DNA of 64,000 nucleotides from a virus (Duplodnaviria; Caudoviricetes): the IMG/VR virus record IMGVR_UViG_3300017914_002346. The stretch is one strand, 5' to 3'. Under the pieces are notes generated by a model, which ran no database searches, was not told the origin of the DNA, and saw nothing but the letters and a program-made list of their open reading frames with translations. A program made the position numbers and the translations under genes. Shown piece after piece: positions 4,378 through 61,792 of the stretch. Numbering within the stretch: the first letter of the stretch is position 1; each line of letters begins with the position of its first letter.

Positions 4378-4401
4378 AATAACTCCTATAGTTGTTATAA
4401 A

Positions 4402-5660: not shown

Positions 5661-5663
5661 ATA

Positions 5664-5671: not shown

Positions 5672-5703
5672 ATAAATAATTTAAATAAGTTATGGATTAA
5701 ATT

Positions 5704-32106: not shown

Positions 32107-32310
32107 CTATACAAACTTTATATCTTTTTTCTGCAAATTGTGTGGATTAATATGAGGTAAATCTCTTTTTGCTTCTTCTACTGTAAGATATGGACCAACA
32201 GACCCTAAGATTTTTTGTGAACCATCAACATTAGTTCTTACACACAATACTTCATATGCTTCTTCAATAGAGAATATTCGTACTATAGGATAACTAAGTT
32301 CATACGACAT
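32107..32310 (-). CDS. Hypothetical protein
   Basis: ORF at end of glycan operon. Confidence 0.5.
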   Translation of the reverse strand: MSYELSYPIVRIFSIEEAYEVLCVRTNVDGSQKILGSVGPYLTVEEAKRDLPHINPHNLQKKDIKFV

Positions 32311-34364: not shown

Positions 34365-34368
34365 TGGC

Positions 34369-34719: not shown

Positions 34720-35498
34720 TTTACTACTCTTTCTATCTCTAAAAGTTTTTGTATGATACCTACCATATCTTCTAATTTGACCATGTTTGGTCCGTCTGAT
34801 GGTGCGTCATCAGGGCTTGGGTGTGTTTCCATAAAGAACGACTGTACTCCAACTGCAGCTGCTGCTCTCGCAAGTGTTGGAACGTACGATCTATTTCCTC
34901 CCGACGACGTTCCGTTTCCACCAGGTTTTTGTACACTGTGCGTTGCATCGAAAACAATATCAACATCAGTATAATTATCAAGCATGTACTGGATGCCAGT
35001 GAAATCATTAATAAGAGTGTTGTATCCAAAACTAGTTCCTCTTTCTGTTATCCATACTTCTTTAGCATTTTCTGTCTTAGTTAAAATACCTGCAACATCC
35101 CATGGAGCTAAAAACTGACCTTTTTTAACATTAATAATAAAGTCGGTGTCACAAGCACTTTTAATTAGATCAGTTTGTCTACATAAGAAAGCAGGAATCT
35201 GTAATACATCTAAAGCGTTTCTATAATCTACAGAAGCACTATTTACTTGCCATATTTCATGAACATCAGTTAACGTCTTAAGACCTGGTATAGCTTCTTT
35301 AATGGCTAAAAAGTCTTCTAGCGTTTCATGAAACCCTAAACCTCTTTTTCCAGATAAAGATGTTCTATTAGCTTTATCGAATGATGCTTTGAAATAATAT
35401 TCAAAGTTTAACACTCTACTTAACTCATGAAGATGTGAAGCAATTTCTAGAGACTGCTCATATGATTCATGTTGACATGGACCTGCAATAATTCTCAT
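34716..35498 (-). CDS. kdsA: KDO-8-phosphate synthase
   Basis: IAGPC, KASFDKANRTS, QIPAFLCRQT, KKGQF, ERGTSFGY, DATHSVQ. Confidence 0.96.
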   Translation of the reverse strand: MRIIAGPCQHESYEQSLEIASHLHELSRVLNFEYYFKASFDKANRTSLSGKRGLGFHETLEDFLAIKEAIPGLKTLTDVHEIWQVNSASVDYRNALDVLQIPAFLCRQTDLIKSACDTDFIINVKKGQFLAPWDVAGILTKTENAKEVWITERGTSFGYNTLINDFTGIQYMLDNYTDVDIVFDATHSVQKPGGNGTSSGGNRSYVPTLARAAAAVGVQSFFMETHPSPDDAPSDGPNMVKLEDMVGIIQKLLEIERVVK

Positions 35499-36250
35499 CT
35501 ACGTTCAATATCCAACTCTGTTAACTCATCACCAAACCAAGTTTCTATTACTTTAGCAGGTTCTTTACCTCTATTATAAGCTTTATGCCAAACTTGTTGC
35601 CCGATATCAAAACTTTGTGTCGGAATAATCATATCAGTTCTTTTTACGCCCATCCACTCTGTCTCAATAGTTACTTGACCTTGTACTACATGCCAATGTT
35701 CTGATCTATGACTATGTCTTTGATCAGATAAACTCTTATTAGGTAGAATAGTTAACTCTTTTACAGCCCAACCTTCGCCTTCATCTAGTACTCTATACCA
35801 ACCCCAAGGTCGTTCTGTTTTAGGTGCTTTCCAGTCTTCTAATATCCAAGAAGAGCTGTTCATTTTATTTTTACCACCCACACCAAACTTAAACTCTACA
35901 TCAAACTCAAAACTCATATCCATTTCAGGAATGTTTGATTTAGTTCTGTCTCCACCGTTCATAAAGATGAGTTGGCTATCTGGAAACATTGCTGCAGCTC
36001 TTTCAATAAGATCACTAGCAGAGTCATCTTCATCAGAAAAGTCTGTTGCGTAGTTTACATCATGTAGAGCTTTTAGAATGCGAACTCTTTCTTGAAAAGG
36101 CATGAAGAATCTACCTTTCTTTCTACATAACCAATCATCAGAGTTAACACCTACTAATAAAAAGTCACAAGCGTTTTTTGCAGCTTTAATGTAATTTATA
36201 TGCCCTGAATGTATAGGGTCAAAGCCTCCTGATATAATACCTATTTTCAT
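35495..36250 (-). CDS. Cytidylyltransferase-like domain fused to mannose-6-phosphate-isomerase-type cupin
   Basis: SGGFDPIHSGH, NGGDR, NSSS; then RPWGWY...SLSDQRH.HRSEHW. Confidence 0.88.
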   Translation of the reverse strand: MKIGIISGGFDPIHSGHINYIKAAKNACDFLLVGVNSDDWLCRKKGRFFMPFQERVRILKALHDVNYATDFSDEDDSASDLIERAAAMFPDSQLIFMNGGDRTKSNIPEMDMSFEFDVEFKFGVGGKNKMNSSSWILEDWKAPKTERPWGWYRVLDEGEGWAVKELTILPNKSLSDQRHSHRSEHWHVVQGQVTIETEWMGVKRTDMIIPTQSFDIGQQVWHKAYNRGKEPAKVIETWFGDELTELDIERR

Positions 36251-36930
36251 TATTCAATTCCAAACATTTCTTTAATTTCATTTTTCCATAGTTCACCATG
36301 AGGACAGTTATGGTATTCTTTAAACCAAGGACCACCATCTGTATAGTGAATAAGAACTGGGTTTTCTTGTTCTATGTCATAGTAACCTGCTAAGAAATTA
36401 AACTTAGGTGGCAGTTTACCTATTCTTTCATCATTAGCCCACATCATTCTATGTAGATACATAGGCGTCTCTGTATTGACTACTTCTGGTGTTAGTGATG
36501 TGCAGTTCTTATTATTAAACAACATTACAGAGGACCAGTTCTTTCTAGGGTAAATGTGCTGCTCTCTTCCATCCATCTTAACCATTGACTTGGGATCATA
36601 GTCATGCTGCACACAATAAACATCTTTACCATAATCAGCAAACTCTAACACAAACTCTAAATCACTAAGACAAACCATATCACAGTCCATAAAAAGAGAA
36701 TAGCCTTCATAGTTACTAAGATGAGGAACTAAAAATCTACTAATAGTAAATTCTGTAGAACCTTTTTTATCATTATCTCTAGTATATAACCCCTGTTCTC
36801 TCAGCTCATATAACTTAAGAGGATATACTTCAATATTAGGATTATGTTTAAGAATAGAGTGTTTTGCAACTTCATACGCAATATCTTCTCTACTATCCCA
36901 ACCTATAAAGACTTTTAGATTATCTGACAT
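36250..36930 (-). CDS. Glycosyltransferase (GT8-like)
   Basis: FIGWDSRE, STEFTISRFLVP, FMDCDM, YPRKNWSS, HYTDGGPW. Confidence 0.88.
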   Translation of the reverse strand: MSDNLKVFIGWDSREDIAYEVAKHSILKHNPNIEVYPLKLYELREQGLYTRDNDKKGSTEFTISRFLVPHLSNYEGYSLFMDCDMVCLSDLEFVLEFADYGKDVYCVQHDYDPKSMVKMDGREQHIYPRKNWSSVMLFNNKNCTSLTPEVVNTETPMYLHRMMWANDERIGKLPPKFNFLAGYYDIEQENPVLIHYTDGGPWFKEYHNCPHGELWKNEIKEMFGIE

Positions 36931-37667
36931 TTACTATTCTCCATCATGACTTCCCAAGCGTCACCTAGTTCATTTCTTTCAAAAGAAGACCAAGTTAAGT
37001 TATCAAATACTTTCATTCTATCTGGTTCTTCTATCATTGCGTCTGTTTCTAACTGTTCTATATTCTTTGATGCACCTTTAGCTGGACACCAACCTAAAGA
37101 AATTGTTGGTGTACCAAGTCGCATTGCTTCTAATGCTGCAGCAGAACCCCAAGTAATCACACAATAGGCTTCTTTTATTTGCTGCTCTAAAGGTCTTGCT
37201 TTGCGACCTTTTGCAGGTTTACCTCTTACTATTATATCTTTATCTGTATATAAGTTCACATTATGTGCAATATAGTTTAAGAAGTTACGCAACCCGAACG
37301 TGTCCATATAAGGAGGAGATGGAGGAAGGACAAGTATTTTATCTCCTGTCCCTCCTCGCCACGGTAGTAGTTGCGTGCCGTGTTCGAATCTTCTACCTTC
37401 TCTCATAGTAGTTGGAGCGGTAGAATTAAGTAGTACTCTTTTATATTTACCTAAATAGCCATTATCCATACACACCCAAGGTATTTTTCTATCAATAGCT
37501 TGTTTAATTACTTCATCCATTCCTCTAAGTACACCGTGTACTACAACACAAGATGCATCATCTGGTACTATTGTACTAGGAAGTTCTATAAAGCTAGCTT
37601 CTTGATTTTGAACTAACTCTCTAACATTTGTAGCTTTAATATTTTTATCTAAGTACGCGTATATCAT
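36915..37667 (-). CDS. KpsS/capsule-synthesis-like GT-B transferase (paralogue 1)
   Basis: DNGY, IIVRGKP, VITWGSAAALEA..LGTP. Confidence 0.6.
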   Translation of the reverse strand: MIYAYLDKNIKATNVRELVQNQEASFIELPSTIVPDDASCVVVHGVLRGMDEVIKQAIDRKIPWVCMDNGYLGKYKRVLLNSTAPTTMREGRRFEHGTQLLPWRGGTGDKILVLPPSPPYMDTFGLRNFLNYIAHNVNLYTDKDIIVRGKPAKGRKARPLEQQIKEAYCVITWGSAAALEAMRLGTPTISLGWCPAKGASKNIEQLETDAMIEEPDRMKVFDNLTWSSFERNELGDAWEVMMENSKCQII

Positions 37668-38458
37668 GCTCTACGTTCTGGCGAGTAACCCTGATCTTTT
37701 CTTTTACCTTTAAGATGATCTAAATACTTCCCGAGAGGTCCAGTAACAAAAGGATGACGAGATGAGCCATCGCCGATATCAATAGATACATTACCATTGG
37801 CTTCTTTTTCAACATATTTTTCAGCTGCCCACCAAACATAGCTATCATGCCATTCTTCAAGTTGAAATAATGCTCCTTCATCATATAACCATTTCATTAG
37901 TTGAAAGTACCTATCATAGTACTTGTTTTGTGTATCCCATATCATGAAACCACACTCAGGGTATACATTAGGACGACCAATTCTAGTCCATAGTTTACCC
38001 TCTTCTACTAAACTATTAAGAAAGTCTATAGGTATATTTTTAGTTGCAACTACATCAGCATCACACCAAACAATATATCTTGCCTCTGAATTTTGTCTAA
38101 AATGATCAATAGCATAATACTTATGACTAAACCTAGTAGCTTCGAATAAGTATCTAGAACCAGTAGTTACAGGTCCTTCTCTATGTGATCTAGGATCTTC
38201 TCCATTAGGTCCTAATACTTTTTCTTCCCATGGCGCTGCAAGAATAGAAAAGTCATTATACCTTTCACCTATACTGTCTTCAAAACTTCTAAATGAAACG
38301 TTACCGTGTTGAGTTAAAGGTTCATCCATATCTTCATAGTAACAAGTTAAATGTACTTCAGATGGCCAAAACTCAGAAAAGGTTTCAACCATTCTGTCTC
38401 CATACTTATCGTATCCTGCTTTATGAAATGTAGTAACTACATCAAACTTATCTGCCAT
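37664..38458 (-). CDS. Glycosyltransferase
   Basis: RFSHKYYA, WCDADV, ECGF, EWHDS, DHLKGKRK. Confidence 0.8.
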   Translation of the reverse strand: MADKFDVVTTFHKAGYDKYGDRMVETFSEFWPSEVHLTCYYEDMDEPLTQHGNVSFRSFEDSIGERYNDFSILAAPWEEKVLGPNGEDPRSHREGPVTTGSRYLFEATRFSHKYYAIDHFRQNSEARYIVWCDADVVATKNIPIDFLNSLVEEGKLWTRIGRPNVYPECGFMIWDTQNKYYDRYFQLMKWLYDEGALFQLEEWHDSYVWWAAEKYVEKEANGNVSIDIGDGSSRHPFVTGPLGKYLDHLKGKRKDQGYSPERRA

Positions 38459-39215
38459 GTGCTTGTACTCTTTCTTTAGAAAAACCTACGTGCTTTCTTC
38501 CACCTTTCATATGGTCGAAATACTTACCTAATGGACCTGCTACTAAAGGATGTCTAGAGTTAACACCATAACCTAGATCAGCAGTTGTAATTTTACCTTG
38601 CTCTTCTAATGTAAAGGTAGCATAATCAAAAGCATAACAATCATGAGACTCTTTAAACGTAAAAATTTTATCTTCTGTATAGCAGCTATCATAAAGATTA
38701 CACCACTCTTTATGCATTTCATGTTCTGTATCCCAGATCATCATACCAGTCTCAGTAAACTTCTTTCGCTGTCTTCTATCAGGAAAAGAGTTATAGTGAT
38801 TACCTTGTGTAAGATTGTCTAATAATTCAGTAGGTACATCTTGTAAGGTCATTAAGTCTGCATCTAAATAGATGACGTATCTAGTTCTAGGATTACGTAA
38901 CTCTTGTAATTGTGCATAGACTTTTTTACTAAACTTAACAGCCTGTCTTTTGCTAATATCACCACCTACCATATCATCAAAGATATCTTTATCTTTATTA
39001 CGTTCAGCAAAGTCTTTTGAACCTGTAATGTAATCATCAAAGTTTAGAATATGAACTCTACTAGAAGGTTCATATGGTATTTCTTGTTGTCCCTCCAAGT
39101 ATACATATGCATTAATATCAGAAGGCCAATGCTTATCAAAAGAAGGTACGCTATGTTTTCCATAAACGTCCCAATACTTAGTTGGAAAAGTCATAATGAC
39201 TGAATAGTTACTCAT
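38448..39215 (-). CDS. Glycosyltransferase (tandem paralogue of 37664..38458)
   Basis: KFSKKVYA, YLDADL, ETGM, ESHDC, DHMKGGRK. Confidence 0.8.
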   Translation of the reverse strand: MSNYSVIMTFPTKYWDVYGKHSVPSFDKHWPSDINAYVYLEGQQEIPYEPSSRVHILNFDDYITGSKDFAERNKDKDIFDDMVGGDISKRQAVKFSKKVYAQLQELRNPRTRYVIYLDADLMTLQDVPTELLDNLTQGNHYNSFPDRRQRKKFTETGMMIWDTEHEMHKEWCNLYDSCYTEDKIFTFKESHDCYAFDYATFTLEEQGKITTADLGYGVNSRHPLVAGPLGKYFDHMKGGRKHVGFSKERVQAHGR

Positions 39216-39742
39216 GTTAAGTCCTGCATTATATCTATAGTAAGAGACTTAATGTTAATCTCTCTTGGTTGGTTAATCATCCACACGACAGCATTAGCGA
39301 CATCTTCAGGTCTCATTTTAGGTGCATCAATATGTTCTACCATTTTAGTATTCATTCTACCTGGTTTGATAAGAGAAACTTTACATTTACTATTAACTAA
39401 TGCTAATTGTTGACAAGCTTTCTCTAATGCTGCTTTATGTACACAGTAAGGATGTACTTTCATTCTGTCACCATCACTAGCAACAGAACCTACATTTATT
39501 ATATGACAATATCTATCTTTGTTAGCTTCGACTAACTTATATAATATCTCTACTTGCGCAAACCCGTTGTGAGAACAATTTATATACACGTTAAAATCAT
39601 TCTTGATAAACTTGTAAAGACTAAAGTCCATATCATATTCAGGTCTATCTAAACAAGTAACTTCTAAAAGAGGTGTATCTCTTTCTAACTTTTGTTTAAT
39701 AGCAGAACCTAGTCCGCCTCTACTACCAGTTAAGTATATCAT
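39212..39742 (-). CDS. Short-chain dehydrogenase/reductase
   Basis: TGSRGGLG, INVGS, YCVHK, PGRMNT. Confidence 0.85.
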   Translation of the reverse strand: MIYLTGSRGGLGSAIKQKLERDTPLLEVTCLDRPEYDMDFSLYKFIKNDFNVYINCSHNGFAQVEILYKLVEANKDRYCHIINVGSVASDGDRMKVHPYCVHKAALEKACQQLALVNSKCKVSLIKPGRMNTKMVEHIDAPKMRPEDVANAVVWMINQPREINIKSLTIDIMQDLT

Positions 39743-40713
39743 TAATTACTATGCCGCCATATATCTTTTCTTACCATATCTTTAATCATAGCCTCGAAAG
39801 TCCATTCGGGTTCCCAACCTAGTTCTTTTTTAGCCTTATCAGAACTTGCATGTAAAGATACTAAGTCATTAGGTCTAACAAATTCAGGATCAGATACTAC
39901 ATGCTTTTCCCAATTATCTATAGCCGCAGCATCGAAAGCTACTCTACAAAGATCTCTAATTGTCTTTTTAACACCTGTTGCAATAATATAATCTTTAGCT
40001 TCTTCTTGTTGCAACATTAACCATTGAGCTTTAACAAAGTCTTGGGCATGACCCCAATCACGTTCAGCATCTAAGTTGCCTAACTTAATAACATCCTTCT
40101 TTCCATGATAGATTTGTGCTACACCATCAGTTACTTTACGAGTTACAAATTCAATACCTCTTAAAGGTGATTCATGATTGAATAAAACACCTGAACAAGC
40201 AAACATATCATAACTTTCTCTAAAGTTACGAGTAATATGATAACCAAACAGCTTAGCTACACCGTAAGGTGATGCCGGCATGAAAGCTGTTTCTTCTGTT
40301 TGTACACCATTAGTACTATTATTACCAAACATTTCAGACGTACCTGCTTGATAAAACTTAATCTTAGGATTAATACGTTTAATAGCTTCTAAAAAATTAA
40401 GAGGACCTAACGCATCAACTTGAGATGTAGTATGTGCTAATCTCCATGAGCTACCTACATAGCTTTGTGCAGCTAGGTTATAAACCTCTGTAGGTTCAGA
40501 AGCTTCAACAGCATCAAATAGACTACCAATGTCAGTTACATCGGCTGTAAATAGTTTTAAACCTCTTTCTCTTAGATCTAAAAAATCTAAATTAGAGTAG
40601 TTAGGTACGGAATACCTTTTTATAATACCATATACTTCATAACCTTTATCTAGTAAAAGGTCAGCTAAGTAACATGCATCTTGACCTGGAAAGCCAGATA
40701 TTAATGCTCTCAT
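39742..40713 (-). CDS. gmd: GDP-mannose 4,6-dehydratase
   Basis: GFPGQD, YNLAAQS, TSEMFG, SPYGVAK, FNHESPLRG.EFVTRK, RDWGHA. Confidence 0.95.
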   Translation of the reverse strand: MRALISGFPGQDACYLADLLLDKGYEVYGIIKRYSVPNYSNLDFLDLRERGLKLFTADVTDIGSLFDAVEASEPTEVYNLAAQSYVGSSWRLAHTTSQVDALGPLNFLEAIKRINPKIKFYQAGTSEMFGNNSTNGVQTEETAFMPASPYGVAKLFGYHITRNFRESYDMFACSGVLFNHESPLRGIEFVTRKVTDGVAQIYHGKKDVIKLGNLDAERDWGHAQDFVKAQWLMLQQEEAKDYIIATGVKKTIRDLCRVAFDAAAIDNWEKHVVSDPEFVRPNDLVSLHASSDKAKKELGWEPEWTFEAMIKDMVRKDIWRHSN

Positions 40714-41885
40714 ACAACACTCCTAATTAATTTACTAACAGCTTTGATCTTATCAGTTAAATCGACACAATCATTACCAATAAAGAAACCGTTATCGTGA
40801 ATATAGTCGGCGTTAGGACAGTCTGTCTTAATATGATTGAGATGATCAATAACTGGGTTTCTCATAAAGTTACCAGCAACAATAGGTCTACATTCAACAC
40901 CTTGCGCTTGTAATGCATCAATAACTTCTCTTCTTCTACCTTCAAGGTTACCCATACAAGTTAAACCGAAACCGAACCAGCTGCTTTGTCCGATTTCGCT
41001 TTGTAAATGCATATGAGTAGAGTGTAACTCTTCTTGAGCAACAAGAGCGTTCTGTCTTCTCATCTTAAGCATCTCAGGCCATTTCTTCAATTGCTCTTGA
41101 CCTACAGCACCAGACATTTCCAATGGTCTAACTGTATAACCCGGAAGAACAAACTTAAAACTATCTTCAAAAGGGTCACCTGTTTTATCTAATAAACTAT
41201 TTTCATTAGGTAGATCTCTAATCCAACCATGCGCTCTCAGAGGAAGTAAATACTCATATAAGTCATCATCATCTGTAACTACCATACCACCTTCCATAGT
41301 CTGTAGATGATGACTAAAGAAGAAACTAAAGGTACCCATTCTACCAAACGTAGCACATTGTTGACCGTTAAGTTTAGCACCTAGACTCTCACAATTATCT
41401 TCTAGCAATACAAGGTCATGTTGATTACATAAAGCTCTTAAGTCTTCTAAAGGACATGGATTACCTAGAAGGTTAACAGCGAAAACACCCACTGTGTACT
41501 CATCAATATTTTTTTCCACTGTCTGTACATCTAGATTATAAGTAAAAGGATTTACATCAACAAACTTAAGATCAAAATCATTTTGATGCACAGGAAAATA
41601 AGTAGTAGACCAACTAACAGCAGGTACTATAATATTAGGTTTAGCCTTACCTCTTACTTCTGTATTAAACTTAGGATGTAATTTAAGTGCAGATAGCATA
41701 ATAAGATTAGCAGATGAACCACTATTAGTCATAACTGCATGTTTAGTGCCAAAGAAGTCGGCAAACTGTCTTTCATATTCTTTTACTTCAGGTCCCATTG
41801 TGTATCGGCCCGAATCAATAACTCTATGTAACGCAGCTATCTCAGCTGAGTCCCAAGTGTCGCTTGATAAACCATAATTAATCAT
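40710..41885 (-). CDS. PLP enzyme, ColD-type GDP-4-keto-6-deoxymannose 3-dehydratase
   Basis: NSGSSAN, EDNCESLG, FSFFFSHHLQTMEGG (His at the usual Lys position), LRAHGW; adjacent to gmd. Confidence 0.85.
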   Translation of the reverse strand: MINYGLSSDTWDSAEIAALHRVIDSGRYTMGPEVKEYERQFADFFGTKHAVMTNSGSSANLIMLSALKLHPKFNTEVRGKAKPNIIVPAVSWSTTYFPVHQNDFDLKFVDVNPFTYNLDVQTVEKNIDEYTVGVFAVNLLGNPCPLEDLRALCNQHDLVLLEDNCESLGAKLNGQQCATFGRMGTFSFFFSHHLQTMEGGMVVTDDDDLYEYLLPLRAHGWIRDLPNENSLLDKTGDPFEDSFKFVLPGYTVRPLEMSGAVGQEQLKKWPEMLKMRRQNALVAQEELHSTHMHLQSEIGQSSWFGFGLTCMGNLEGRRREVIDALQAQGVECRPIVAGNFMRNPVIDHLNHIKTDCPNADYIHDNGFFIGNDCVDLTDKIKAVSKLIRSVV

Positions 41886-42504
41886 ATACTACCTCTATGC
41901 TATTCTTCACATCTCTATACTGGTTAATTTTTTTAATTAGATCAAAGTCAGGTTTAAACACTTTCATAATCTTCTCGATGGTTTTAACTTTAGGTTTTGC
42001 TTTTCTATTTCTAGAAGCGTTTACCCCTGTACTTTTTAATTTGACTTTAATAAGGTTATGCTCTTCACAAAACATATCTAAATCTTCTTGTAAATTTTCT
42101 ACTCTAAGCAAATTTTCTACAGGCAAATCTTTAACCCATTCAGATTGAGTAAGTACACCAAATCTTTGTACAAGTATATTATAACCTTTCCCTTCAATAA
42201 AGTCATCAAAGGTTTTAAACTTTTTTACAGATAGTTCTATCTTAGATCTTTGCGCATGAAAGCCAGCGAAGTAATAATAACTTTGCAGCCAGTCAATAGG
42301 ATTTCTTATTGTAGCAAAGAAGTAATCAAAATTATCTAAATTATAATCTTCTAAATGAAAATGAACTGTATTTTTAACACCTCTTTTTGGTCTTCCTCTA
42401 GATTTAGGAGGAATGTATAGCCCGTGATCAGATAAGGTGTTACGAATAGTTCTACCAGCAGTCTTAGGAATGTGAATAAAACCAACTCTATTAAAATTAT
42501 TCAA
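41878..42504 (-). CDS. Sulfotransferase family protein
   Basis: FIHIPKTAG (5'-PSB), IRNP.DWL.SYY (3'-PB). Confidence 0.85.
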   Translation of the reverse strand: MNNFNRVGFIHIPKTAGRTIRNTLSDHGLYIPPKSRGRPKRGVKNTVHFHLEDYNLDNFDYFFATIRNPIDWLQSYYYFAGFHAQRSKIELSVKKFKTFDDFIEGKGYNILVQRFGVLTQSEWVKDLPVENLLRVENLQEDLDMFCEEHNLIKVKLKSTGVNASRNRKAKPKVKTIEKIMKVFKPDFDLIKKINQYRDVKNSIEVVYD

Positions 42505-43444
42505 GACCTGCTCTTTGTAAATAATAAATTAACCAGTTAGGATCAGCCATTTCATCGACTGTCCAACTAGTATATGCCCAATCGTTAAGGTATTGTTCTC
42601 TTTCATTCCAGTCTACAGTTTCTAGATAATTCAACTTACTAAAATCATGCATGCAAGCATCATAAACTACACATCTTTCATCTAGCGCAATTGTTGGAAT
42701 GCCTTCTGTTAGAGCTTCACATGCAGCAGATGAGCTATGTGTTACTACTACACCTGCATTCTTAATAGACTCAATTACTGACATTCTATTTTTATCAGCA
42801 CGTTCTATAACTATATCTTCATAACCATCAGCTATCATCTCTGTTGGATTTCTATCTAAGTTAGGATGAGCTCTTAATATAATTTTTCTATCAGTATTAG
42901 ACCTAATTTGTTTAACTATATTTCTAGCCCATGCATAGAAGGGAAGATGCTCATCATACTGCCACCCTCTCTCTGATTGCAACAAGAATAAAATAGGAGC
43001 TTTATTGTCTATCTTAGGTTCTTTTTCTGTAAAACCAAAAGCTTCTTTCATCCATTCATATCTTTGCGAGTCAGAATTCTTATTGAGAAAATCTCCGGTA
43101 CCTACACAATCACCATACCCCACTCTAAACATAAAAGTTTCTGAACTACTCATTGCATTTCTAATGTAAGTAGAGAACAATGCTGAGTCAAGAGAGAAGA
43201 TAGGTATACCTTTGTCTCTATGTCTTTGTATAGAAATAGCTCTTTCTGTATCCATTTTACGTTTAGTAATAGAACCAAACACAAATACAACATCCGGATC
43301 TTCGTGAACTATTTCATGACCTGCTCCTTCAATAGAAGCTTGTATAGCATGAAAAGCTGCTGTAATCGGATTAGAAAGAATGTGGCGTTTGCTAGCCTTT
43401 ATAGTTGAGAAATCGCATTGAATTTTCATAACATATACCTTCAC
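42497..43444 (-). CDS. KpsS/capsule-synthesis-like GT-B transferase (paralogue 2)
   Basis: LLQ, IILRAHP, VVTHSSSAACEALTEGIP. Confidence 0.65.
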   Translation of the reverse strand: MKVYVMKIQCDFSTIKASKRHILSNPITAAFHAIQASIEGAGHEIVHEDPDVVFVFGSITKRKMDTERAISIQRHRDKGIPIFSLDSALFSTYIRNAMSSSETFMFRVGYGDCVGTGDFLNKNSDSQRYEWMKEAFGFTEKEPKIDNKAPILFLLQSERGWQYDEHLPFYAWARNIVKQIRSNTDRKIILRAHPNLDRNPTEMIADGYEDIVIERADKNRMSVIESIKNAGVVVTHSSSAACEALTEGIPTIALDERCVVYDACMHDFSKLNYLETVDWNEREQYLNDWAYTSWTVDEMADPNWLIYYLQRAGLE

Positions 43445-44165
43445 GCATTTCTTTTATAGAGTATTGTTTGTAAGCTAAATTATAAAAGAGATGCTCTCTA
43501 TCGTATTTATAAGGATTTTCTATATCGGAAAGATTCCAATTTGTACACCAGGCAGAAGGAGCATACTGAGAAGTACCAAAAACAGGAACACCATAGGCCA
43601 GCGCATCAACTGCACATAACGATCCGCTAACGACAACAGCATGACAGTTATCAAGATCGGACTCAAGAGAAGTATCAGCAACGCTAGGACCGCTAGTGCC
43701 GCGTTTTCTAGGCTTAAGACGGACTTTAATTGGCCTTTTTGTATATTTTTTAATTTCTGCAGATGTTTTCTTAACCCACTCATCTACGTTACCTCCATGC
43801 ATGTAGAAAGTCATAGTCTCTGAAGAAGGACATAATAGAATATGTTCACCGTCATTTTTCCATGGCTCAATTTTTCTATTCCAGTTTTCAAATCTATCAG
43901 CTGGTACATCAAGCTTTCTATTATCATGTAAAGACTGATAACACCATCTCCAATATGTATTATCCCAATCTACATTATTAGGATCATATCTTCCATTATA
44001 GGGCATATCACAAAAGATAAAATCACCTTGCATGTAAAGCATATTGTTGCCAATTAGGCCCCATAAAACATATCTATCAAAATCGTGAGAGTTAGTTGTT
44101 GCACCAGGCCAACCTTTTTCTAGTGCTGCGTATATTTTTTCCATCTTAGGAGATGGTCTTGGCAT
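43392..44165 (-). CDS. KpsS/capsule-synthesis-like GT-B transferase (paralogue 3)
   Basis: IKVRLKP, VVSGSLCAVDALAYGVP; start reassigned to MPRPSPK. Confidence 0.6.
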   Translation of the reverse strand: MPRPSPKMEKIYAALEKGWPGATTNSHDFDRYVLWGLIGNNMLYMQGDFIFCDMPYNGRYDPNNVDWDNTYWRWCYQSLHDNRKLDVPADRFENWNRKIEPWKNDGEHILLCPSSETMTFYMHGGNVDEWVKKTSAEIKKYTKRPIKVRLKPRKRGTSGPSVADTSLESDLDNCHAVVVSGSLCAVDALAYGVPVFGTSQYAPSAWCTNWNLSDIENPYKYDREHLFYNLAYKQYSIKEMREGICYENSMRFLNYKG

Positions 44166-44181
44166 TATTAGACTTAATCTT

Positions 44182-44379
44182 TCAACCAAATTTTGCTGCA
44201 TAAGCTTCTTCAAAACCTTCTTCGTAGATATATGTTTCTTCGTTATACCAAGTACGTCTTACATAACCATCATAACATTGTTCTGCTATTTCATCAGTTG
44301 TAATATAACCTTTGACAATCCAGAACATTTTATGCATCTCTTTATGACTTACCAGAGATGTTTTTTTAGTCTCTGCCAT
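44182..44379 (-). CDS. Hypothetical protein
   Basis: ORF within operon. Confidence 0.5.
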   Translation of the reverse strand: MAETKKTSLVSHKEMHKMFWIVKGYITTDEIAEQCYDGYVRRTWYNEETYIYEEGFEEAYAAKFG

Positions 44380-45203
44380 GGAATACCTTTAGCAATTTCA
44401 TCAGGCCACCATTCAATATGAACTAATTCTTTTAACCATTGTGTTCTGTCTTCTTGAGGTGGTGCAGTTAAGTCAGCCCAACTTCTCATAGACATAGGAT
44501 AAGCAAATGATTGTGTACCTGTAAACGTGTATACACCATTTATTGTAGCTTCTATAGCTGGATTGGAAGAATGATTAACTAGGCAATAACTTCTATCTAA
44601 GATGTCTTTAAAGTTAAAATTATCTTCTACACCGGTATGCCTGGGAGTGTCGAAGAACACATCCCTATTTTCTCTAGCAATTCTATGAAAGTCTGTAATT
44701 CTGTCTCTAGGATGGGGTCTGATGACGATGTCTTTATCGCTATATTCTCTAATATTTGTAATAGCGTTCTGTACATATGTTTCAACTGTTGGCATTGTAG
44801 ACCATTGATGAGAGTCTGGTCGTTGTGTAGCGATTGTAATAAATTGTCCATCTTCTATCCACGGTTTAAGTTTAATGCCAAACTTATCTACTCTATCTTC
44901 GATAAGATCTTCTTTATTTGCAAAATTGGCACCGTTGTTAATACCACCGATGCCAACACGCCAAGTTTCATTTCTTTTGAGAGCGCCTACTTCAATAACT
45001 ATTATAGGTTTGCCGCGGCTATTGTAATGTTCCCATACTTGTTTGTTGGGCGCCATTCTACCTGCGAATAGTATTGACCAGATGACTGCAACGTCTGCTT
45101 CCATGTCGTTCCATACGACATGTTCGTCACATCCTTCTGCGAAGGCGTCAAAGATTGGAGGAGAGTTAAGAGCTCCGTACTGACTAAAGAGTGATACACG
45201 CAT
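44349..45203 (-). CDS. KpsS/capsule-synthesis-like GT-B transferase (paralogue 4)
   Basis: TQ, IVIRPHP, VNHSSNPAIEATINGV. Confidence 0.65.
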   Translation of the reverse strand: MRVSLFSQYGALNSPPIFDAFAEGCDEHVVWNDMEADVAVIWSILFAGRMAPNKQVWEHYNSRGKPIIVIEVGALKRNETWRVGIGGINNGANFANKEDLIEDRVDKFGIKLKPWIEDGQFITIATQRPDSHQWSTMPTVETYVQNAITNIREYSDKDIVIRPHPRDRITDFHRIARENRDVFFDTPRHTGVEDNFNFKDILDRSYCLVNHSSNPAIEATINGVYTFTGTQSFAYPMSMRSWADLTAPPQEDRTQWLKELVHIEWWPDEIAKGIPWQRLKKHLW

Positions 45204-46538: not shown

Positions 46539-48242
46539 TTATTTTTTAGAGTCTTTTATTTTCGAGAAGTTGCCGTCTTTATAGAACTCAATTAGTGACT
46601 TGAATCGATCACCGTTTTGACTCTTATGAGAGATAACAAACACGTTAGTCTTATCTAACCCACCTAGAATATCCCATAACACATCCGTAGCTTCTGCATC
46701 AAGAGAACTATCACCTACTTCATCCATAATAAGTAGATTAGTATTGACACTATTCTTTAACTTAGCAATCTCGCGCCAAGTAAACATTAGCGCTAAGTCA
46801 ATACGCATCTTCTCACCTTCAGAAAACGAAGCATATGAGAAAGTATCTCTATATCTAGACTTAATAACTTCATTAAACGATTCATCTAGATGGAACGAAT
46901 AATTGGCACCCATACGATCTAAGTATTGATTAATCAATTGATTCATTACGGGTAGGTATTGTTTGATAATCTTAGCCTTAATACCATCATCTTTCAATAA
47001 GATCTTACAGATTTCATAGTAGTGTTTTAACTCTACTAACTCATGACCTTCTTTCTCAAGTGTCTTAAACTCTTTATCTAATACATCTAGTTCTTCTTGA
47101 GCTTGTTTAAGAGATTGTTCGTCTGATTCTTCAGTACGCGAGTTAAGATTACCATATAAAGTATACAAAGCTTTGCGTTGATTAACATGATCTTTTCTCA
47201 ACTCTATTAGAGAGTTATACTGTTCTTTAATATCATTAGCATGTGTAATCTTTTCTTCTAGTTTACTATACGCGTCTAGTACTATAGGTTTTAAACTTTC
47301 TAACTTATCTGCTTCTGTACGTAACGCAACTAATTGCTCTTCTTTAATAGAAGAGTCTATATCTTGTCTACATACATGACAGTTATCATTCGATTCATAG
47401 AACTCTATTCTACTATCTACGTTCTTTCTTTTTTCTTTTATCTCAAAGCCTTTAAACTTAGCAGCTGATAACTTATCATTTAACTCATCTGTATCAATAA
47501 GTTCAATCTGATTAATTTCACTATCTGTTTCTGCAATCTTAGACTCGATAAGACTAATCTGACCATCAATCTTATTCTTCTCTTGTAATATCTTTTCTTC
47601 TGATTCTTTAGATCTATTTACTAGGTTATTAATAAGACCTTTTTGACCTGATATCTTAGTCTTAGCTATCTCTTTCTGATACTCATTCTCTTTTATGTCG
47701 AGTTCAGTATTTTGCATCTTAGTTTTTAAGATAGTATTCATCTTAGAGAAAACAGTAATATCTAATATCTCTTCGATAATAACTCTACGGTCATTAGTAG
47801 TTAAGTCCATAAACGATTGATATCTAGCAGAACCTAGAATAACAATCTGTGTAAATGCTTTATAGTTAAGACCTATAATATCTTCTAGTTTCTTTTGATA
47901 GTCCTTGATAGCAGCATCATGAGGTATAAGTTTTTCATTTCTGTATATCTCAAACTTATTGGGTTTAACACCTCTAACTACTTTATAGTCTACTTCATTA
48001 ACCGTAAACTCGACTTGTACTTCTAAGCCTTTCTCGTTTACAGTATTCATAAGTTGTGGTTTACTAATGTTACGATAAGGTTTACCAAACACACCAAAAC
48101 ATAACGCATCTAAGATAGTAGATTTACCTGAACCATTTTGACCAGTAATAAGAACCGAAGGTACTCTATTCAATAGAATAACGTTCGGTGTGTTACCAGT
48201 AGAAAGAAAGTTCTTATAGGAGACTGTCTTAAAAGTAATCAT
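46539..48242 (-). CDS. gp46: Recombination endonuclease ATPase subunit (gp46)
   Basis: KNFLSTGN, GQNGSGKST, CHVC hook, FSEGEK, LIMDE. Confidence 0.97.
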   Translation of the reverse strand: MITFKTVSYKNFLSTGNTPNVILLNRVPSVLITGQNGSGKSTILDALCFGVFGKPYRNISKPQLMNTVNEKGLEVQVEFTVNEVDYKVVRGVKPNKFEIYRNEKLIPHDAAIKDYQKKLEDIIGLNYKAFTQIVILGSARYQSFMDLTTNDRRVIIEEILDITVFSKMNTILKTKMQNTELDIKENEYQKEIAKTKISGQKGLINNLVNRSKESEEKILQEKNKIDGQISLIESKIAETDSEINQIELIDTDELNDKLSAAKFKGFEIKEKRKNVDSRIEFYESNDNCHVCRQDIDSSIKEEQLVALRTEADKLESLKPIVLDAYSKLEEKITHANDIKEQYNSLIELRKDHVNQRKALYTLYGNLNSRTEESDEQSLKQAQEELDVLDKEFKTLEKEGHELVELKHYYEICKILLKDDGIKAKIIKQYLPVMNQLINQYLDRMGANYSFHLDESFNEVIKSRYRDTFSYASFSEGEKMRIDLALMFTWREIAKLKNSVNTNLLIMDEVGDSSLDAEATDVLWDILGGLDKTNVFVISHKSQNGDRFKSLIEFYKDGNFSKIKDSKK

Positions 48243-56422: not shown

Positions 56423-58417
56423 TTAATTATTCACAGTCTTTGAAAGGAACTTCGCATACTGCGATACAGTACTGTCATCTTCTTCGATAACTGTACCACC
56501 GAATACTTCCTCACTCAATGAGCTAAGAAGTGGTTGCTCAGATGATTCGTTGAAATAGCCCTCTTTAAGCTGCTCTACTTTATATCTGAACTCTTCGATG
56601 TCATCTGCTTCAACATTTTCAGACAAGTTTTCTAAGCGGATCTTTTGTGTCTGAGTTAAGTCGTTGCTGACTTCATCTACGATTTCTTTTCTTTTGATTT
56701 CCAAAAGTTCTCTCTTAGCTGACTCAAGCTCACCTGCTTGCTCATCTAACTGCTCTTTATATGATTCAACTGCTTCAGTTAACTCATCAACAACAGATAC
56801 TTCTTCTTCTGGAATATCAATAAAGTTAGATTCAAATACTGTCTTCATTTCGCGAATAAAGTTTTCAGCAATTTCAGTTCTTAATGAGTATTTGATCTCT
56901 AACTGATTTTCTTCTAACCATTCATTAACTACATAGTCAACATACTGGTCAACTTTTTCGTTAATCTTTTTAACTTCTTCTTCTAATTCATCAGCGTATT
57001 TAGCTTCAATTTCTTCAGCTAACTTATTAGCCTTTTCATTGACTGCTGTTTCAAAGATAACAGAAGCTTTTTCTTTAAAGTCTTCATCAAGATCTTCCAT
57101 TAACTCATCCGCATCTTCCTTAACAGGGCCTTTTGGATTAGCTTTAGTTGGAGTATCAATAGGATCTTTAGCTTGATCATGAGCACCTTCACCAGGATTA
57201 CCACCTTTAGAAGTAGGCTCATTTTTACCTTTCTCTTCTTTAGGACGTTTGTCTTCATTTTCAGCAGAAGATGGTGCAGCTTCTAACTTTTCACCAGTTG
57301 CTTCTTCTACTTCTTCTTCTGACTCTTCTTTAGCCATAGCTTTCTTAATAGCTTTGTCTTTATTGTCCATATACTCTTTATCATCTGGCTCATCTACACC
57401 ATCACCATCCATGTCACCTTTATCTTTTGCTTCAGTGACTTCTTGATAATGAGCTTCGATTTCTGCTTGCTCTTCTTCAGTCAAGTTAGAATAGAAATCA
57501 TGGAACTCTTCTTCTGTAAGACCTTCGATCTTATCCCAGTCCCATTCCATTTCTTCTTCTACAGATTCTTTAGCTTCTTCTTCATCATCGTCGTCATCGT
57601 CATCATCTTTTTCGTGATCATCTTTAGAAGCCTCTTCTACTGACTCATCAGTTTCTTCTTTATCATCGTCTTCATCATCGTCATCAGAATCATCTTCTTC
57701 TTTCATGTTCTTCATTGACTCTTTTTCATCGTCTGGAATATGATCATCATTAGCATTCTTTTTTACAGTTGTGTCTTGTGCTTCTTCGATCTCGTCTTCT
57801 TCCACTACAACAGAATCATAACGCTCTTTAAACTCAGCTAACTCTTCTTCTGTTAACGAATCAACTAACTCCTGGAAATCATCTTCAGAAAGGTTATCAA
57901 TCTTATCCCAATCCCATTCCATTGTTTCTGCATCTTCGTCCATAGCTTGATTATGAGGACCTTTGTTAGCTTCAACTTCAGCTGAAGCGTCAGAAGGTAA
58001 TGCATTCTTACCATCTTTCTTAGGACCTACATCTTTATCACCACCACCATCGATAGCAGCACCTTTTTCTGAACCTAAAACTTCTTTAGAATTATCTGAT
58101 GCGCTAGAAGCAATCTTACCTTTGTTCATATCACCGACGTCTTTATCACCGCCTGCGTCAATAGCAGCACCTTTTTCAGAACCAATAACCTCAGATGAAT
58201 TATCACCTTCTTGATCTGACTTAGGCTTAGCTGTATCAGTAAGTTTATTAGCTGCAAGAGACTTATCAGTCTTGTCCTGCGCTTCGTCTACCTGATCTTC
58301 TTCACTCATTTTGTTTTGAGGGTTTCTAACTTTTTTAGGTGCAGTCATATCCGCTTCTAAAAGCTCCTCAATAACATCAATTAAACCGTTATTCTTTTCC
58401 ATTGTATTAAACTCCAA
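56423..58417 (-). CDS. gp22: Prohead core scaffold protein (gp22), greatly extended acidic N-terminus with internal repeats
   Basis: C-terminal EDFKEKASVIFETAV...DQYVDYVV.EWL.EN...IDIPEE; position between gp21 and gp23. Confidence 0.92.
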   Translation of the reverse strand: MEFNTMEKNNGLIDVIEELLEADMTAPKKVRNPQNKMSEEDQVDEAQDKTDKSLAANKLTDTAKPKSDQEGDNSSEVIGSEKGAAIDAGGDKDVGDMNKGKIASSASDNSKEVLGSEKGAAIDGGGDKDVGPKKDGKNALPSDASAEVEANKGPHNQAMDEDAETMEWDWDKIDNLSEDDFQELVDSLTEEELAEFKERYDSVVVEEDEIEEAQDTTVKKNANDDHIPDDEKESMKNMKEEDDSDDDDEDDDKEETDESVEEASKDDHEKDDDDDDDDEEEAKESVEEEMEWDWDKIEGLTEEEFHDFYSNLTEEEQAEIEAHYQEVTEAKDKGDMDGDGVDEPDDKEYMDNKDKAIKKAMAKEESEEEVEEATGEKLEAAPSSAENEDKRPKEEKGKNEPTSKGGNPGEGAHDQAKDPIDTPTKANPKGPVKEDADELMEDLDEDFKEKASVIFETAVNEKANKLAEEIEAKYADELEEEVKKINEKVDQYVDYVVNEWLEENQLEIKYSLRTEIAENFIREMKTVFESNFIDIPEEEVSVVDELTEAVESYKEQLDEQAGELESAKRELLEIKRKEIVDEVSNDLTQTQKIRLENLSENVEADDIEEFRYKVEQLKEGYFNESSEQPLLSSLSEEVFGGTVIEEDDSTVSQYAKFLSKTVNN

Positions 58418-59099: not shown

Positions 59100-59420
59100 T
59101 TATGTCCTAAACTCAATAACAACATTACCCTGTGATGCGGTTGTAAAAGTAATTGCACACGCAGCAGGTGCAGCTAAATTAATACCACCGTGTAATGATA
59201 ATTCCCATCTGCCGGTTTCAAAATCTTTACCGTCAATTGTTACAGCAGACTGTCCCATGTTAGTAACTGATTCAATCTTTCTTACTCGTACATAGTTACC
59301 ATTTACAGTAAAGTCATCTGAATCTAATGTATGATCTGCATCATAGACATGATAGACAATTCTGTTACCAGGTGTTGAACCATTTACTTGTACCGCTTTT
59401 GCTACAATTTCTGCTGCCAT
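59100..59420 (-). CDS. Small hypothetical structural protein
   Basis: Beta-rich ORF in head operon, one DSD motif. Confidence 0.65.
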   Translation of the reverse strand: MAAEIVAKAVQVNGSTPGNRIVYHVYDADHTLDSDDFTVNGNYVRVRKIESVTNMGQSAVTIDGKDFETGRWELSLHGGINLAAPAACAITFTTASQGNVVIEFRT

Positions 59421-60307: not shown

Positions 60308-61792
60308 TTAACCCCAGAGAATAGAGTCCATCTCAAGAGTTGAGTTCTTCAACTCCTCTTCAAGCTCTTGTTTCTCTGCATTCGCTTCATCCCAAAGTCC
60401 TTGACCATCGAGTTGTACACCACCAGGAAGTTCAGTATTTTGATATTTCTTTAAATTAGAACCCCACTGTTGCTTTGCTAACACCGTAGCATATCTTTTT
60501 AACCATGTGTTTTTATAAACCTCACCTGTTAGTTCTGGATCTGCTTGTTCATATACTTCACATAAAAGATAAAAATCTCCTCTACTTTTACCTGTCTTAA
60601 TTCTATTCCAATCTACGTCTAAATATAATCTACTTCTATATTGATTAAATCTTATTGCAGGAGCTGTGTTTAATAAAAAGTCAATATGTTCTACATTTAA
60701 CTTTTGTGTGTAGTAGTTTGATAAACCAGTACCTACAGCATTACCATAGAACATATCAAAGTTATTAAGGAAGTACTGATATTCAAAATTGTACATACCT
60801 GCATGAGTGAAAGAATCTACTTTAGCAACCTTAGTAACAGATACAATACTATCTGGAACTTTAATACCAATCTGTCCTGTAGATGTAACTGTAATGTTTT
60901 CATCTTCTAATACTTTTAATTCTTCTTTAAAGTATTTGCTAAAGCCATTATGAGCTGTTCGTTTACCAAATCTTCTAGGTCTTGTAGATGTAGGGCTAAA
61001 ACGTTGACTTCTTAGAACATCTCTTTGTGTATATCTAGTAGCTCTTTCTATAATTACCAATTTAAATCTTTGATCTGAATCTGTATCTAAATCACTATCA
61101 AACAATCTAAAAGTAGTACCATCGGAATCTTGTACGTATGCACCAACTTCGTCACTATCATATCTATTAGAGTAATCTAAATCTGAGTCAAGTAGTCTAT
61201 AAGTAACACCGTCAGAGTCTAAAATATATGCTCCGCTATTATCAGAATCATATACTTGGTAATAATCTAAATCAGAATCAATAGCTCTAAATTCAGAACC
61301 ATCAGAATCTAAAATATGAGAACCGTATTGTTCAGAGTCATAAAATTTAGCTGTTTCAGAAATGTCTAAATCACTATCAAATACTCTTATATTACCATCT
61401 GAATCTCTTACAAAGGCACCATTAGTATCTGAATCATAAAAGATATTAGTTGACTCTGAATCAGTCTTAATAAAGATTCTATTTCCTCTAGTATTATCAA
61501 CTTTAACCATAACTCTATCACCAATGCGATAGTCGTTTAGCTTATCTGAGTCAAATTTTTCTGCTGTAAGATCTTGGTGAATTCTATTATTACGGTTAAG
61601 TAAATTTGAATCTACTTTAATTGTTCTCCAAGATCTAGTTACACCATCATAGTGATAGTTGTAAAAGAATTGCACGGCTTCGTCAATACAATCTTCCAAT
61701 TGTACATCAGCGATTTCTACGTTAATGACTGGCGCGCCTAGTCTACGTAAAACCCAATCTGCTAACTCTTGTTTAGTCGCTGGTAATGGCAT
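60308..61792 (-). CDS. gp13: Neck protein (gp13) with large DSD-repeat insertion
   Basis: LRRLGAPVINVE...Q.EDCIDEA.Q....YHYDG; WLKRYAT...K.QWGSNLKKY....LPGG..LDG. Confidence 0.93.
   Translation of the reverse strand: MPLPATKQELADWVLRRLGAPVINVEIADVQLEDCIDEAVQFFYNYHYDGVTRSWRTIKVDSNLLNRNNRIHQDLTAEKFDSDKLNDYRIGDRVMVKVDNTRGNRIFIKTDSESTNIFYDSDTNGAFVRDSDGNIRVFDSDLDISETAKFYDSEQYGSHILDSDGSEFRAIDSDLDYYQVYDSDNSGAYILDSDGVTYRLLDSDLDYSNRYDSDEVGAYVQDSDGTTFRLFDSDLDTDSDQRFKLVIIERATRYTQRDVLRSQRFSPTSTRPRRFGKRTAHNGFSKYFKEELKVLEDENITVTSTGQIGIKVPDSIVSVTKVAKVDSFTHAGMYNFEYQYFLNNFDMFYGNAVGTGLSNYYTQKLNVEHIDFLLNTAPAIRFNQYRSRLYLDVDWNRIKTGKSRGDFYLLCEVYEQADPELTGEVYKNTWLKRYATVLAKQQWGSNLKKYQNTELPGGVQLDGQGLWDEANAEKQELEEELKNSTLEMDSILWG
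61073..61441 (-). repeat. Four ~30-aa in-frame repeats in gp13
   Basis: Consensus YDS[D/E]xxG[A/S]xxxDSDGxxxRxxDSDLD, aa118-240. Confidence 0.95.

Follow-up and report, generated by a model that had tools for sequence, protein, structure and literature searches.

The subject of this work is a 64,000-nucleotide stretch of DNA from a tailed virus (Caudoviricetes; IMG/VR record IMGVR_UViG_3300017914_002346), hereafter the window, and a short acidic tripeptide, Asp-Ser-Asp or Asp-Ser-Glu (DS[D/E], hereafter the tag), which recurs in the neck protein gp13 encoded near the end of the window and in several other proteins. The source of the window is an uncultured aquatic T4-like myophage with a GC content of about 35%. 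Its portal DNA is at most 68% identical to that of cyanophage and pelagiphage isolates, a distant kinship only. The terminase of L103, which serves as the reference locus of its clade, has a best match of no more than 53.5% identity in the GenBank phage collection that was searched, and on account of this low best identity the clade is considered to be without a cultured member.

The open reading frame (ORF) at 60308..61792 (minus strand) encodes a 494-aa gp13 neck protein (head-tail adaptor Ad2) with a large insertion. Specifically, the ORF matches phrog_211 (E 1.6e-35) and, in a phmmer search of PDB sequences, the T4 gp13 chains 9mkb and 9lu4 (E 1e-24), with aa 4-60 and 409-481 aligned, while its database relatives match PF26809. 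The N- and C-terminal helices are homologous to the four-helix bundle of T4 gp13. The gp13 proteins of isolates, with canonical lengths of about 250-310 aa, align to the two ends of the window protein only; therefore, the approximately 230 aa between them (aa ~60-290; 60923..61615, minus strand), which contain all 15 DS[D/E] of the protein, represent an insertion. In the T4 gp13 dodecamer, the matched ends form the four-helix bundle and the segment after residue 51 forms a peripheral 'swing' domain, adjoining the fibritin-binding domain that holds the 12 neck fibres (PMC12929587). By homology, the insertion would enter at the position of the T4 swing domain and would be displayed in twelve copies on the neck exterior.

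All 15 tags of gp13 fall within aa 81-240, and 12 of them occupy three fixed positions in each of four tandem units of about 30 aa (61073..61441, minus strand), which were delimited by sequence inspection, Tandem Repeats Finder and the family consensus. The unit has the form Y-DSD-xxGAYxx-DSDG-xxxRxx-DSDLD in the window, where Tandem Repeats Finder reports a 90-nt period at 61173..61342, and the consensus of the gp13 family is [VW]DS[DE]G.[FY]V.YDSD.H. The database relatives range from 330 to 937 aa and carry up to 36 tags, with 0 to more than 10 repeat units and 2-3 tags per unit; gp13 proteins 80-95% identical to each other differ by 0, 1 or 4 units. The insertion is best explained as an expandable array of beta-hairpin-like repeats. 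In IMG/VR, no gp13 with the hairpin repeat was found, and a looser pattern, DSDG-x4-YDSD, recovered only the C-terminus of a gp15 from another phage group. In an AlphaFold model of the window protein, based on a 70-sequence alignment, the core is confident and aa 68-281 have a predicted local distance difference test (pLDDT) score of 35-50, for which reason tag exposure in the insertion was not mapped.

The gene order is unusual as well: gp13 follows the portal gene gp20 and precedes the head genes, its canonical place being before gp14, and the same order occurs in the loci L112, L113 and L193. The relocation to a site directly after gp20 is seen in the window at 60308-63371 (minus strand), in L088 and in L112, and in relatives such as L088 up to eight fibre genes stand between gp20 and gp13.

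The initial annotation had listed the DS[D/E] tripeptides of five ORFs, and all of its counts were reproduced. For each protein, the expected number was derived from 2000 composition-preserving shuffles. Against these controls gp13 is strongly enriched (15 tags vs 0.69 expected, p<=0.0005), and so are a near-orphan 642-aa putative fibre or adhesin (8759..10687, plus strand; 8 vs 0.46, p<=0.0005), in which all 8 tags lie in the C-terminal half (aa 329-642), and a 72-aa ORF (5704..5922, plus strand; 3 vs 0.18, p 0.0005) directly upstream of a fibre-like gene. The latter gene (5932..7023, plus strand) encodes a 363-aa protein which has one tag and an N-terminal motif common with the ORFs starting at 8759 and 2716. 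A single tag is also found in the 106-aa protein encoded between gp13 and gp21 (59100..59420, minus strand; shuffle p 0.05), whose orthologues in L081 and L082 have none, as well as in gp46 (46539..48242) and gp22 (56423..58417), both absent from the initial list. Taken by class, the outer proteins of the window hold 27 tags vs 1.6 expected (Poisson 9e-24), the head, portal and tube proteins 2 vs 3.1, and all the other proteins (15,646 aa) 1 vs 8.9. The last of these figures is a depletion (p=0.0014, or about 0.007 if set against the ~0.8 observed/expected ratio of control phages).

Since the four gp13 repeats arose by duplication, their 12 tags are not independent events. Nevertheless, the excess persists in non-repetitive proteins and in relatives. 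The 642-aa protein, described earlier as unrelated to gp13, proved to be so at the BLASTP level, as the gp13 insertion shows no similarity to it beyond the tag itself (E 0.93). The protein has no Pfam or PHROG match, and searches of Pfam and PDB sequences with the gp13 insertion, the 642-aa protein and the fibres gave no match; its sole homologue, P0016, shares 33% identity with it and has retained 7 of the 8 tag sites.

The distribution of the tag in the rest of the virion was followed on a JGI contig that is identical to the window over their overlap and reaches 8.5 kb past the window end, and the counts for sheath and fibres were read on the loci L083 and L100. A 440-aa coiled-coil protein encoded upstream of gp18 (L083:4420-5742) has 17 tags vs 1.4 expected. 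The sheath has 4 vs 0.55 expected, all of them in aa 100-400, which align to the outer domains of T4 gp18, and the LamG fibres have 5-8 each. No tag is present in gp19, a gp19-like protein, gp20, gp21 or gp23, and gp22 has one. A comparable arrangement was observed on the contigs of two gp13 relatives: each fibre gene that lies upstream of gp13 has 8-39 tags vs about 1 expected, with the exception of one 601-aa collagen-like ORF with 0, and the head genes downstream carry none. The idea that the tag concentrates in proteins of the virion surface therefore holds for neck, tail and fibre proteins, and does not extend to the capsid, portal and tube or to one Gly-rich fibre of the window.

Clade loci were anchored on the terminase gene gp17, with identity measured to L103. 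The 13 loci whose gp17 is 67-81% identical to L103 contain 492 tags vs 46 expected. When gp17 identity is about 50-54% (67 loci), 101 tags were counted vs 117 expected and no ORF has 4 or more. Control phages gave no excess either: 21 vs 26.5 expected in the whole genome of Marine virus AG-345-L05, 2 vs 8.1 in the tail module of P-SSM2, 3 vs 7.7 in HTVC008M and 0 vs 4.4 in Pelagibacter phage Mosig. In five related loci, which span genes for the head, replication and sugars, 6 tags were counted vs 18.5 expected. In conclusion, the tag is a marker of one clade, 10-26-fold enriched in outer proteins and about 3-fold depleted elsewhere. A literature search retrieved no published description of it. 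Separately, in a different T4-like group of IMG/VR (L094-L099), a 263-aa gp15-like protein (L097:7026-7817) has 4 DS[D/E] near its C-terminus vs 0.17 expected, the remainder of that locus being flat.

The sequence requirements of the tag were assessed on 13 fibre and neck proteins of three phages (7,891 aa in total). In this pool DS[D/E] occurs 229 times, 26-fold over expectation. The variants are below chance level (DT[D/E] 0.6-fold, ES[D/E] 0.3-fold, DS[N/Q] at most 0.5-fold) and DGD, DDD and DED do not occur at all. Following DS, Asp and Glu are each enriched 26-27-fold, as compared to 2.0-fold for Ile (7 cases), 0.6-fold for Thr, 0.7-fold for Leu, 0.5-fold for Val and 0 for Ala and Met. 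All three positions of the tag are therefore strict. The tag serine is encoded by both TCN and AGY codons, which places the selection at the protein level. A cause at the DNA level, such as a GANTC site arising from GAY-TCN, was considered and rejected, as AGY is also used and the TCN/AGY proportions in the window are the same as elsewhere.

The tag does not depend on a particular fold, as it is found in the beta-rich gp13 repeats, heptad coiled-coil fibres, outer-domain loops of the sheath, LamG, Collar and Gly-rich fibres. Tags appear as isolated tripeptides spaced by 7-35 residues. Comparing orthologue pairs, 20 of 25 and 22 of 28 tag sites are shared in fibre repeats at a background identity of 38-50%, and in globular parts the shared sites are 1 of 4 (sheath) and 7 of 17 (Gly-rich domain), with unrelated tripeptides opposite the unshared sites. 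These alignments support a selection for the presence of the tag rather than for its place, and an independent gain of tags in unrelated folds.

The same data bear on the possibility that the tag has no function of its own and has hitch-hiked on repeat modules duplicated and shuffled among fibre genes, the sugar genes of the phage being separately devoted to remodelling the host envelope. Such a history would account for the 12 of 15 gp13 tags that come from the duplication of one unit, for the repeat number varying from 0 to many among gp13 proteins 80-95% identical, and for the tag codons of L081 and L082, which are skewed to GAC-TCN as shared descent would give; in addition, known beta-Kdo transferases, to which genes of the window are compared below, build capsule and lipopolysaccharide (LPS) (PMC10148158). 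It leaves unexplained, however, the single tags in non-repetitive, unrelated proteins (sheath, LamG, Gly-rich and 642-aa proteins) with different sites in orthologues, a conservation of tags far above that of their surroundings, and the fact that BLAST detects no resemblance of the 642-aa protein to the gp13 insertion. We consider this explanation very improbable.

A second alternative is that the tag is a structural or cation-binding mark, with nothing attached to the serine: Asp/Glu layers in the core of trimeric fibres would chelate Ca2+ or Mg2+, DSDG would form tight beta-turns in gp13 and in sheath loops, and the tag would stiffen or stabilise exposed fibres in ion-rich water. Several observations agree with this. 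In the coiled-coil fibres the commonest tag spacings are 14 and 21 residues, with hydrophobic residues at -1, +6, +9 and +13, and the third tag residue falls on the heptad d (core) position, which would suit an acidic core layer. The tag positions of the fibre repeats are highly conserved. DSDG, a sequence well suited to a type I beta-turn, accounts for 27% of the tags in the gp13 family (in fibres DSD is followed by Ser, Leu, Glu or Ile) and is present at one aligned site of a solved sheath homologue (PDB 9ev2). The window gp13 units end in DSDLD, a DxDxD pattern, and the failure of AlphaFold to fold the gp13 insertion as a monomer would fit a dependence on ions or oligomerisation. An EF-hand-like DxDxDG pattern is not matched, since DSDLD occurs four times in the window gp13 but the clade consensus is DSDG or YDSD.H.

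What speaks for an enzyme instead is the middle position. Thr, Asn or Gly would be acceptable there in a turn, a helix cap or a DxD ion site (ion sites and turns normally allow Asp as well), so that the restriction to Ser, the only residue enriched (26-fold, against 0.6-fold for Thr and 0 for Gly), favours recognition by an enzyme. Moreover, the tag is also found, with turnover of its sites, in globular loops free of coiled coil, related aquatic phages of the same kind of water lack it, and its depletion in non-virion proteins is not expected of a purely structural motif; such a depletion would follow if a reader in the cytoplasm imposed selection against off-target sites. The structural explanation could account for a large share of the pattern and is a serious competitor, in our judgement possible, although doubtful.

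A tripeptide that is strict, independent of fold, conserved, repeatedly gained and elsewhere avoided resembles the recognition motif of an enzyme. A serine-modification sequon is for these reasons the best reading of DS[D/E], which we hold tentatively, at a little less than an even chance. From these properties we infer that the clade may have placed a short linear tag in those parts of its neck, sheath and fibre proteins that face outward, and that a sequence-specific enzyme in the cytoplasm of the infected cell would read it before or during assembly and modify the serine. The likeliest modification would be O-glycosylation by a phage-encoded transferase; that the serines carry a glycan specifically is a doubtful proposition on present evidence. 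[quoted passage not shown]

The sugar-nucleotide enzymes that had been assigned to this cluster are solidly identified. In the part of the cluster at 32300..42504 (minus strand), Pfam and PHROG scans reveal a KDO8P synthase (34716..35498), a cytidylyltransferase fused to a cupin (35495..36250), a GDP-mannose 4,6-dehydratase (39742..40713), a DegT aminotransferase (40710..41885) and a sulfotransferase-like protein (41878..42504), along with 2-oxoglutarate (2OG) oxygenase-like, P-loop kinase-like, cupin and SDR genes, all on the minus strand. The glycosyltransferases (GTs), about eight of which had been proposed, fared less well, as one has a PHROG match and the other seven are candidates by sub-threshold similarity or paralogy. 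The first is a PmgQ-like GT-A protein (32970..33671, minus strand), which matches a PHROG glycosyltransferase family and is homologous to PmgQ of phage P1. The putative others are a GT8-like protein (36250..36930, minus strand; sub-threshold, E 0.0024), two GT-A-like paralogues (37664..39215, minus strand) and four GT-B-like paralogues forming one family. Within the GT-A-like pair, 38448..39215 has sub-threshold GT2, GT8 and GT21 matches (E ~0.07), and 37664..38458 has no GT match of its own and is counted as its paralogue. The P-loop kinase-like gene (33921-34379, minus strand) and the sulfotransferase-like gene (41878-42504, minus strand) could form a sulfation pair dependent on 3'-phosphoadenosine 5'-phosphosulfate; the sulfotransferase-like gene was not found in the clade loci covering that stretch (L187, L190, L194).

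The GT-B-like family consists of three genes at 42497..45203 (42497..43444, 43392..44213 and 44349..45203) and a fourth at 36915..37667, all on the minus strand and related in pairwise BLASTP comparisons (24% identity, E 1e-6 to 1e-11), with the motifs R-x-HPR and HSS..A.EA in common. One member, the 315-aa product of 42497..43444, was modelled with AlphaFold (pLDDT 77, predicted template modelling score 0.76). All of the top 24 or so PDB matches of this model in Foldseek belong to the beta-Kdo transferases WbbB, KrkA and KpsC (E 4e-7 to 5e-6, template modelling (TM) score 0.42-0.49), as compared to 0.30-0.35 for generic GT-B folds. According to the model, the protein is thus closest in fold to the retaining beta-Kdo transferases, with the modified GT-B fold of WbbB and KpsC, a likeness which supports the earlier idea of a Kdo-type glycan.

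The sequences themselves are divergent. R-x-HP-R is found in the members starting at 42497 and 44349 and is replaced by K-P in those starting at 43392 and 36915, and the stretch aligned with the QxxxD motif reads QSERG, QRPDS, SSETM or PSP in the four paralogues, with no clean QxxxD. None of them matches PF05159 above threshold, the sub-threshold matches being DUF6716 and Epimerase_2 only; PF05159 itself is present in only 10-18% of the members of neighbouring Atlas clusters. A profile of the family found no match among PDB sequences. As regards known systems, the modelled protein resembles WbbB (GT99), KpsC (GT107) and KrkA in its fold, two of the four paralogues have an HP motif, and a KDO8P synthase gene is part of the cluster; the differences are that the paralogues stay below Pfam thresholds, QxxxD is unclear and the TM score to these enzymes is only 0.43-0.49.

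Synteny of the 32-46 kb cluster, which lies next to gp46, holds in each of the five clade loci extending that far (L187, L188, L190, L194 and L196), and no record of a T4-like phage in the GenBank phage collection matched the GT-B-like family. The co-occurrence of cluster and tag across related phages, which had been suggested as a check, is thus seen in five of five loci. Nonetheless, these belong to a single clade, and because of this shared ancestry the co-occurrence counts as one evolutionary event. Furthermore, a 26%-identical homologue of the GT-B-like family is encoded by the unrelated podovirus MW202713, which has no tag excess, and therefore the family alone does not imply the tag. 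In this temperate podovirus (MW202713.1, L197), the homologue is unannotated and lies inside a sugar cassette at 36.1-40.5 kb, just upstream of the terminase, which is annotated as encoding a PLP (pyridoxal phosphate) enzyme, a methyltransferase and a TibC-like protein heptosyltransferase.

Other candidate writers of the tag are encoded in a variable enzyme island located just upstream of gp16, inside the late operon of some clade members. GT-A-like genes adjoin gp16 in L103-L105, L113, L115 and L116. Specifically, the island of L103-L105 comprises two GT-A-like genes besides a radical SAM gene, after which comes a Cys-rich gene, and that of L115 and L116 comprises three GT-A-like genes. L112 and L113 have sulfotransferase-like and SDR genes, with a GT-like gene in the longer L113 only, and L114 has other enzymes. 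A metagenome scan with the GT-A-like protein of L103 found nothing. The PmgQ-like GT-A protein and a radical-SAM/carbamoyltransferase cluster were rejected as sufficient writers, since phage Mosig has both and 0 tags. In Mosig (L200, MT647606.1), the tailoring cluster at 54.7-70 kb lies directly beside the tail-fibre genes and, according to the GenBank annotation, encodes Asp/Arg hydroxylase-domain proteins, three MoaA-like radical SAM proteins, a carbamoyltransferase, methyltransferases and an aminotransferase.

The radical SAM genes raise the question of whether the tag could direct some non-glycan modification of serine, for example phosphorylation by an acidophilic kinase, the addition of phospho-linked groups or radical-SAM chemistry. 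The statistics of the motif would be the same as for glycosylation. Acidic residues at -1 and +1 are typical of the sites of acidophilic Ser kinases, a context which the tag offers, and in L103-L105 the radical SAM gene and the Cys-rich gene after it stand upstream of gp16. On the other hand, no kinase was found among the proteins scanned, the gp16 island differs from one clade member to another, with none within 10 kb in L118, and a similar radical-SAM/carbamoyltransferase cluster in Mosig comes with no tags. A non-glycan modification is in our view quite unlikely.

Returning to a glycan on the tag serine, three known systems of protein O-glycosylation offer points of comparison. The Bacteroidetes sequon, to which the initial annotation had likened the tag, is D-(S/T)-(A/I/L/V/M/T), with a small or aliphatic third residue; it allows Thr as well as Ser, and secreted proteins are glycosylated at it in the periplasm. 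The likeness is confined to the Asp preceding the hydroxyl residue and to the length of three residues: in the present proteins position 3 is Asp or Glu only, Thr is not enriched, and virions assemble in the cytoplasm. The type of transfer-messenger RNA (tmRNA) found in the window argues against a Bacteroidetes host as well, and the parallel does not fit. Specifically, a two-piece (permuted) tmRNA gene of alpha-proteobacterial type is located at 5343..5692 (minus strand; Rfam RF01849, alpha_tmRNA, 120.9 bits, and RF04321, 84.4 bits), although ARAGORN made no call there, and it suggests an alpha-proteobacterial host. Because they lie on this gene, the minus-strand ORFs 5409..5648 and 5635..5901 are not regarded as genes; the second partly overlaps the tagged 72-aa ORF 5704..5922, and the first is located just before it.

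As for glycosylation by phages themselves, Freeman et al. are said to have reported in Cell Host Microbe in 2023 that mycobacteriophage glycosyltransferases encoded near structural genes decorate the phages' own virion proteins in the cytoplasm. There the C-terminal tails of capsid and tail-tube proteins are modified, whereas here capsid and tube are untagged and the neck, sheath and fibres carry a strict internal tripeptide. The Maf family (PF01973) of flagellin nonulosonate transferases likewise acts in the cytoplasm, O-linking CMP-activated acidic sugars to Ser/Thr of an exposed filament; PF01973 had no match in five clade records (fragments, 2-21% complete) nor in the cluster proteins of the window.

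The closest acceptor is staphylococcal. The cytoplasmic enzymes SdgB and SdgA add N-acetylglucosamine to nearly every Ser in the Asp-Ser-Asp motifs of SD-repeat proteins (PMC3794999). As in the clade, the acceptor Ser is flanked by Asp and the targets are exposed adhesive proteins, and the enzymes, which have no signal sequences, are cytoplasmic (PMC3794999). In contrast, the staphylococcal proteins offer as acceptor an extended, unbroken run of SD within a disordered stalk, and the tags described here are isolated tripeptides, also of the form DSE, in folded repeats and loops. The Sdg enzymes are moreover of GT4 type, and no GT4-type (Glycos_transf_1) Pfam match was obtained among the 20 cluster proteins scanned. 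With respect to architecture, the neck recalls the collar and whiskers of T4 (gp13 with gpWac fibritin), having the same four-helix-bundle core and the insertion at the swing-domain site (PMC12929587). Unlike the 309-aa T4 gp13, which binds a separate fibre protein, the gp13 of the window itself bears a variable repeat array, and a separate tag-rich coiled-coil protein of 440 aa is encoded upstream of gp18.

A number of observations weigh against a tag-directed glycosylation, in addition to the heptad placement, the turn-forming DSDG, the single-clade link and the podoviral homologue given above. The acceptors of known beta-Kdo transferases are glycolipids or glycans and not proteins, the retaining enzymes extending glycolipids or O-antigens (PMC10148158, PMC9587256, PMC12887879), and phage sugar clusters are usually read as serving host-envelope remodelling. 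Capsid, portal and tube have no tag, and neither does the 570-aa Gly-rich fibre at 2716..4428 (minus strand). L118 ranks among the loci richest in tags and lacks an enzyme island over the 10 kb upstream of gp16, and Mosig encodes a PmgQ-like GT-A protein (36% identical) and its radical-SAM/carbamoyltransferase cluster beside the fibres, yet has 0 tags. Of the earlier proposal of an acceptor sequon acquired convergently for phage transferases, the strict and independently gained tag stands; as to the remainder, the modification is putative and the candidate enzymes co-occur with the tag within one clade. The complete scenario, in which DS[D/E] would guide a set of phage-encoded cytoplasmic enzymes to serines of the neck, sheath, baseplate and fibres, several hundred of them in each genome, and a Kdo-type acidic glycan would coat the tail apparatus and not the head, appears unlikely when taken as a whole.

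Some further features of the fibre region deserve mention. The fibre-like proteins at 2716-4428 (minus strand; the 570-aa protein, of the Gly_rich_2 type), 5932-7023 (plus strand), 8759-10687 (plus strand) and L100:7253-12547 are otherwise unrelated and have a similar short N-terminal motif, of the form M-P-[LF]-[AG]-F-x-[RF]-S-[IVL]-L-x-x-G-G or M-A-R-S-x-x-R-R-[IL]-S-R, which may be a shared attachment peptide. Asparagine-synthase-like and tryptophan-halogenase-like genes lie among the fibre genes (7020-8711, minus strand; 10706-11767, plus strand), and beside the fibre gene 2716..4428 three tandem ORFs (919-2701, minus strand) resemble 2OG-oxygenase genes by eye; all of these are possible protein- or sugar-tailoring enzymes. 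Elsewhere in the window, three adjacent tRNA genes, Trp-CCA, Leu-TAA and Arg-TCT, are located at 28603-28846 (minus strand).

Whether the tag proves to be a modification sequon or a structural element, DS[D/E] is a clade marker of very large effect size. As a cation-binding layer, it would represent a new design principle for segmented coiled-coil fibres. As a modification sequon, it would provide a simple sequence rule for recognising modified virion proteins in metagenomes and point to a new cytoplasmic system with a three-residue acceptor transferable to other proteins, and it could explain how fibre charge, stability and receptor recognition are tuned in abundant aquatic phages. Should the complete glycan scenario be true, the gp13 repeat array would be a length-variable, glycan-bearing collar, and the clade would provide the first case, among phages of Gram-negative hosts, of a virion modification directed by a sequon across the proteome, as well as the first protein-directed use of enzymes resembling beta-Kdo transferases.

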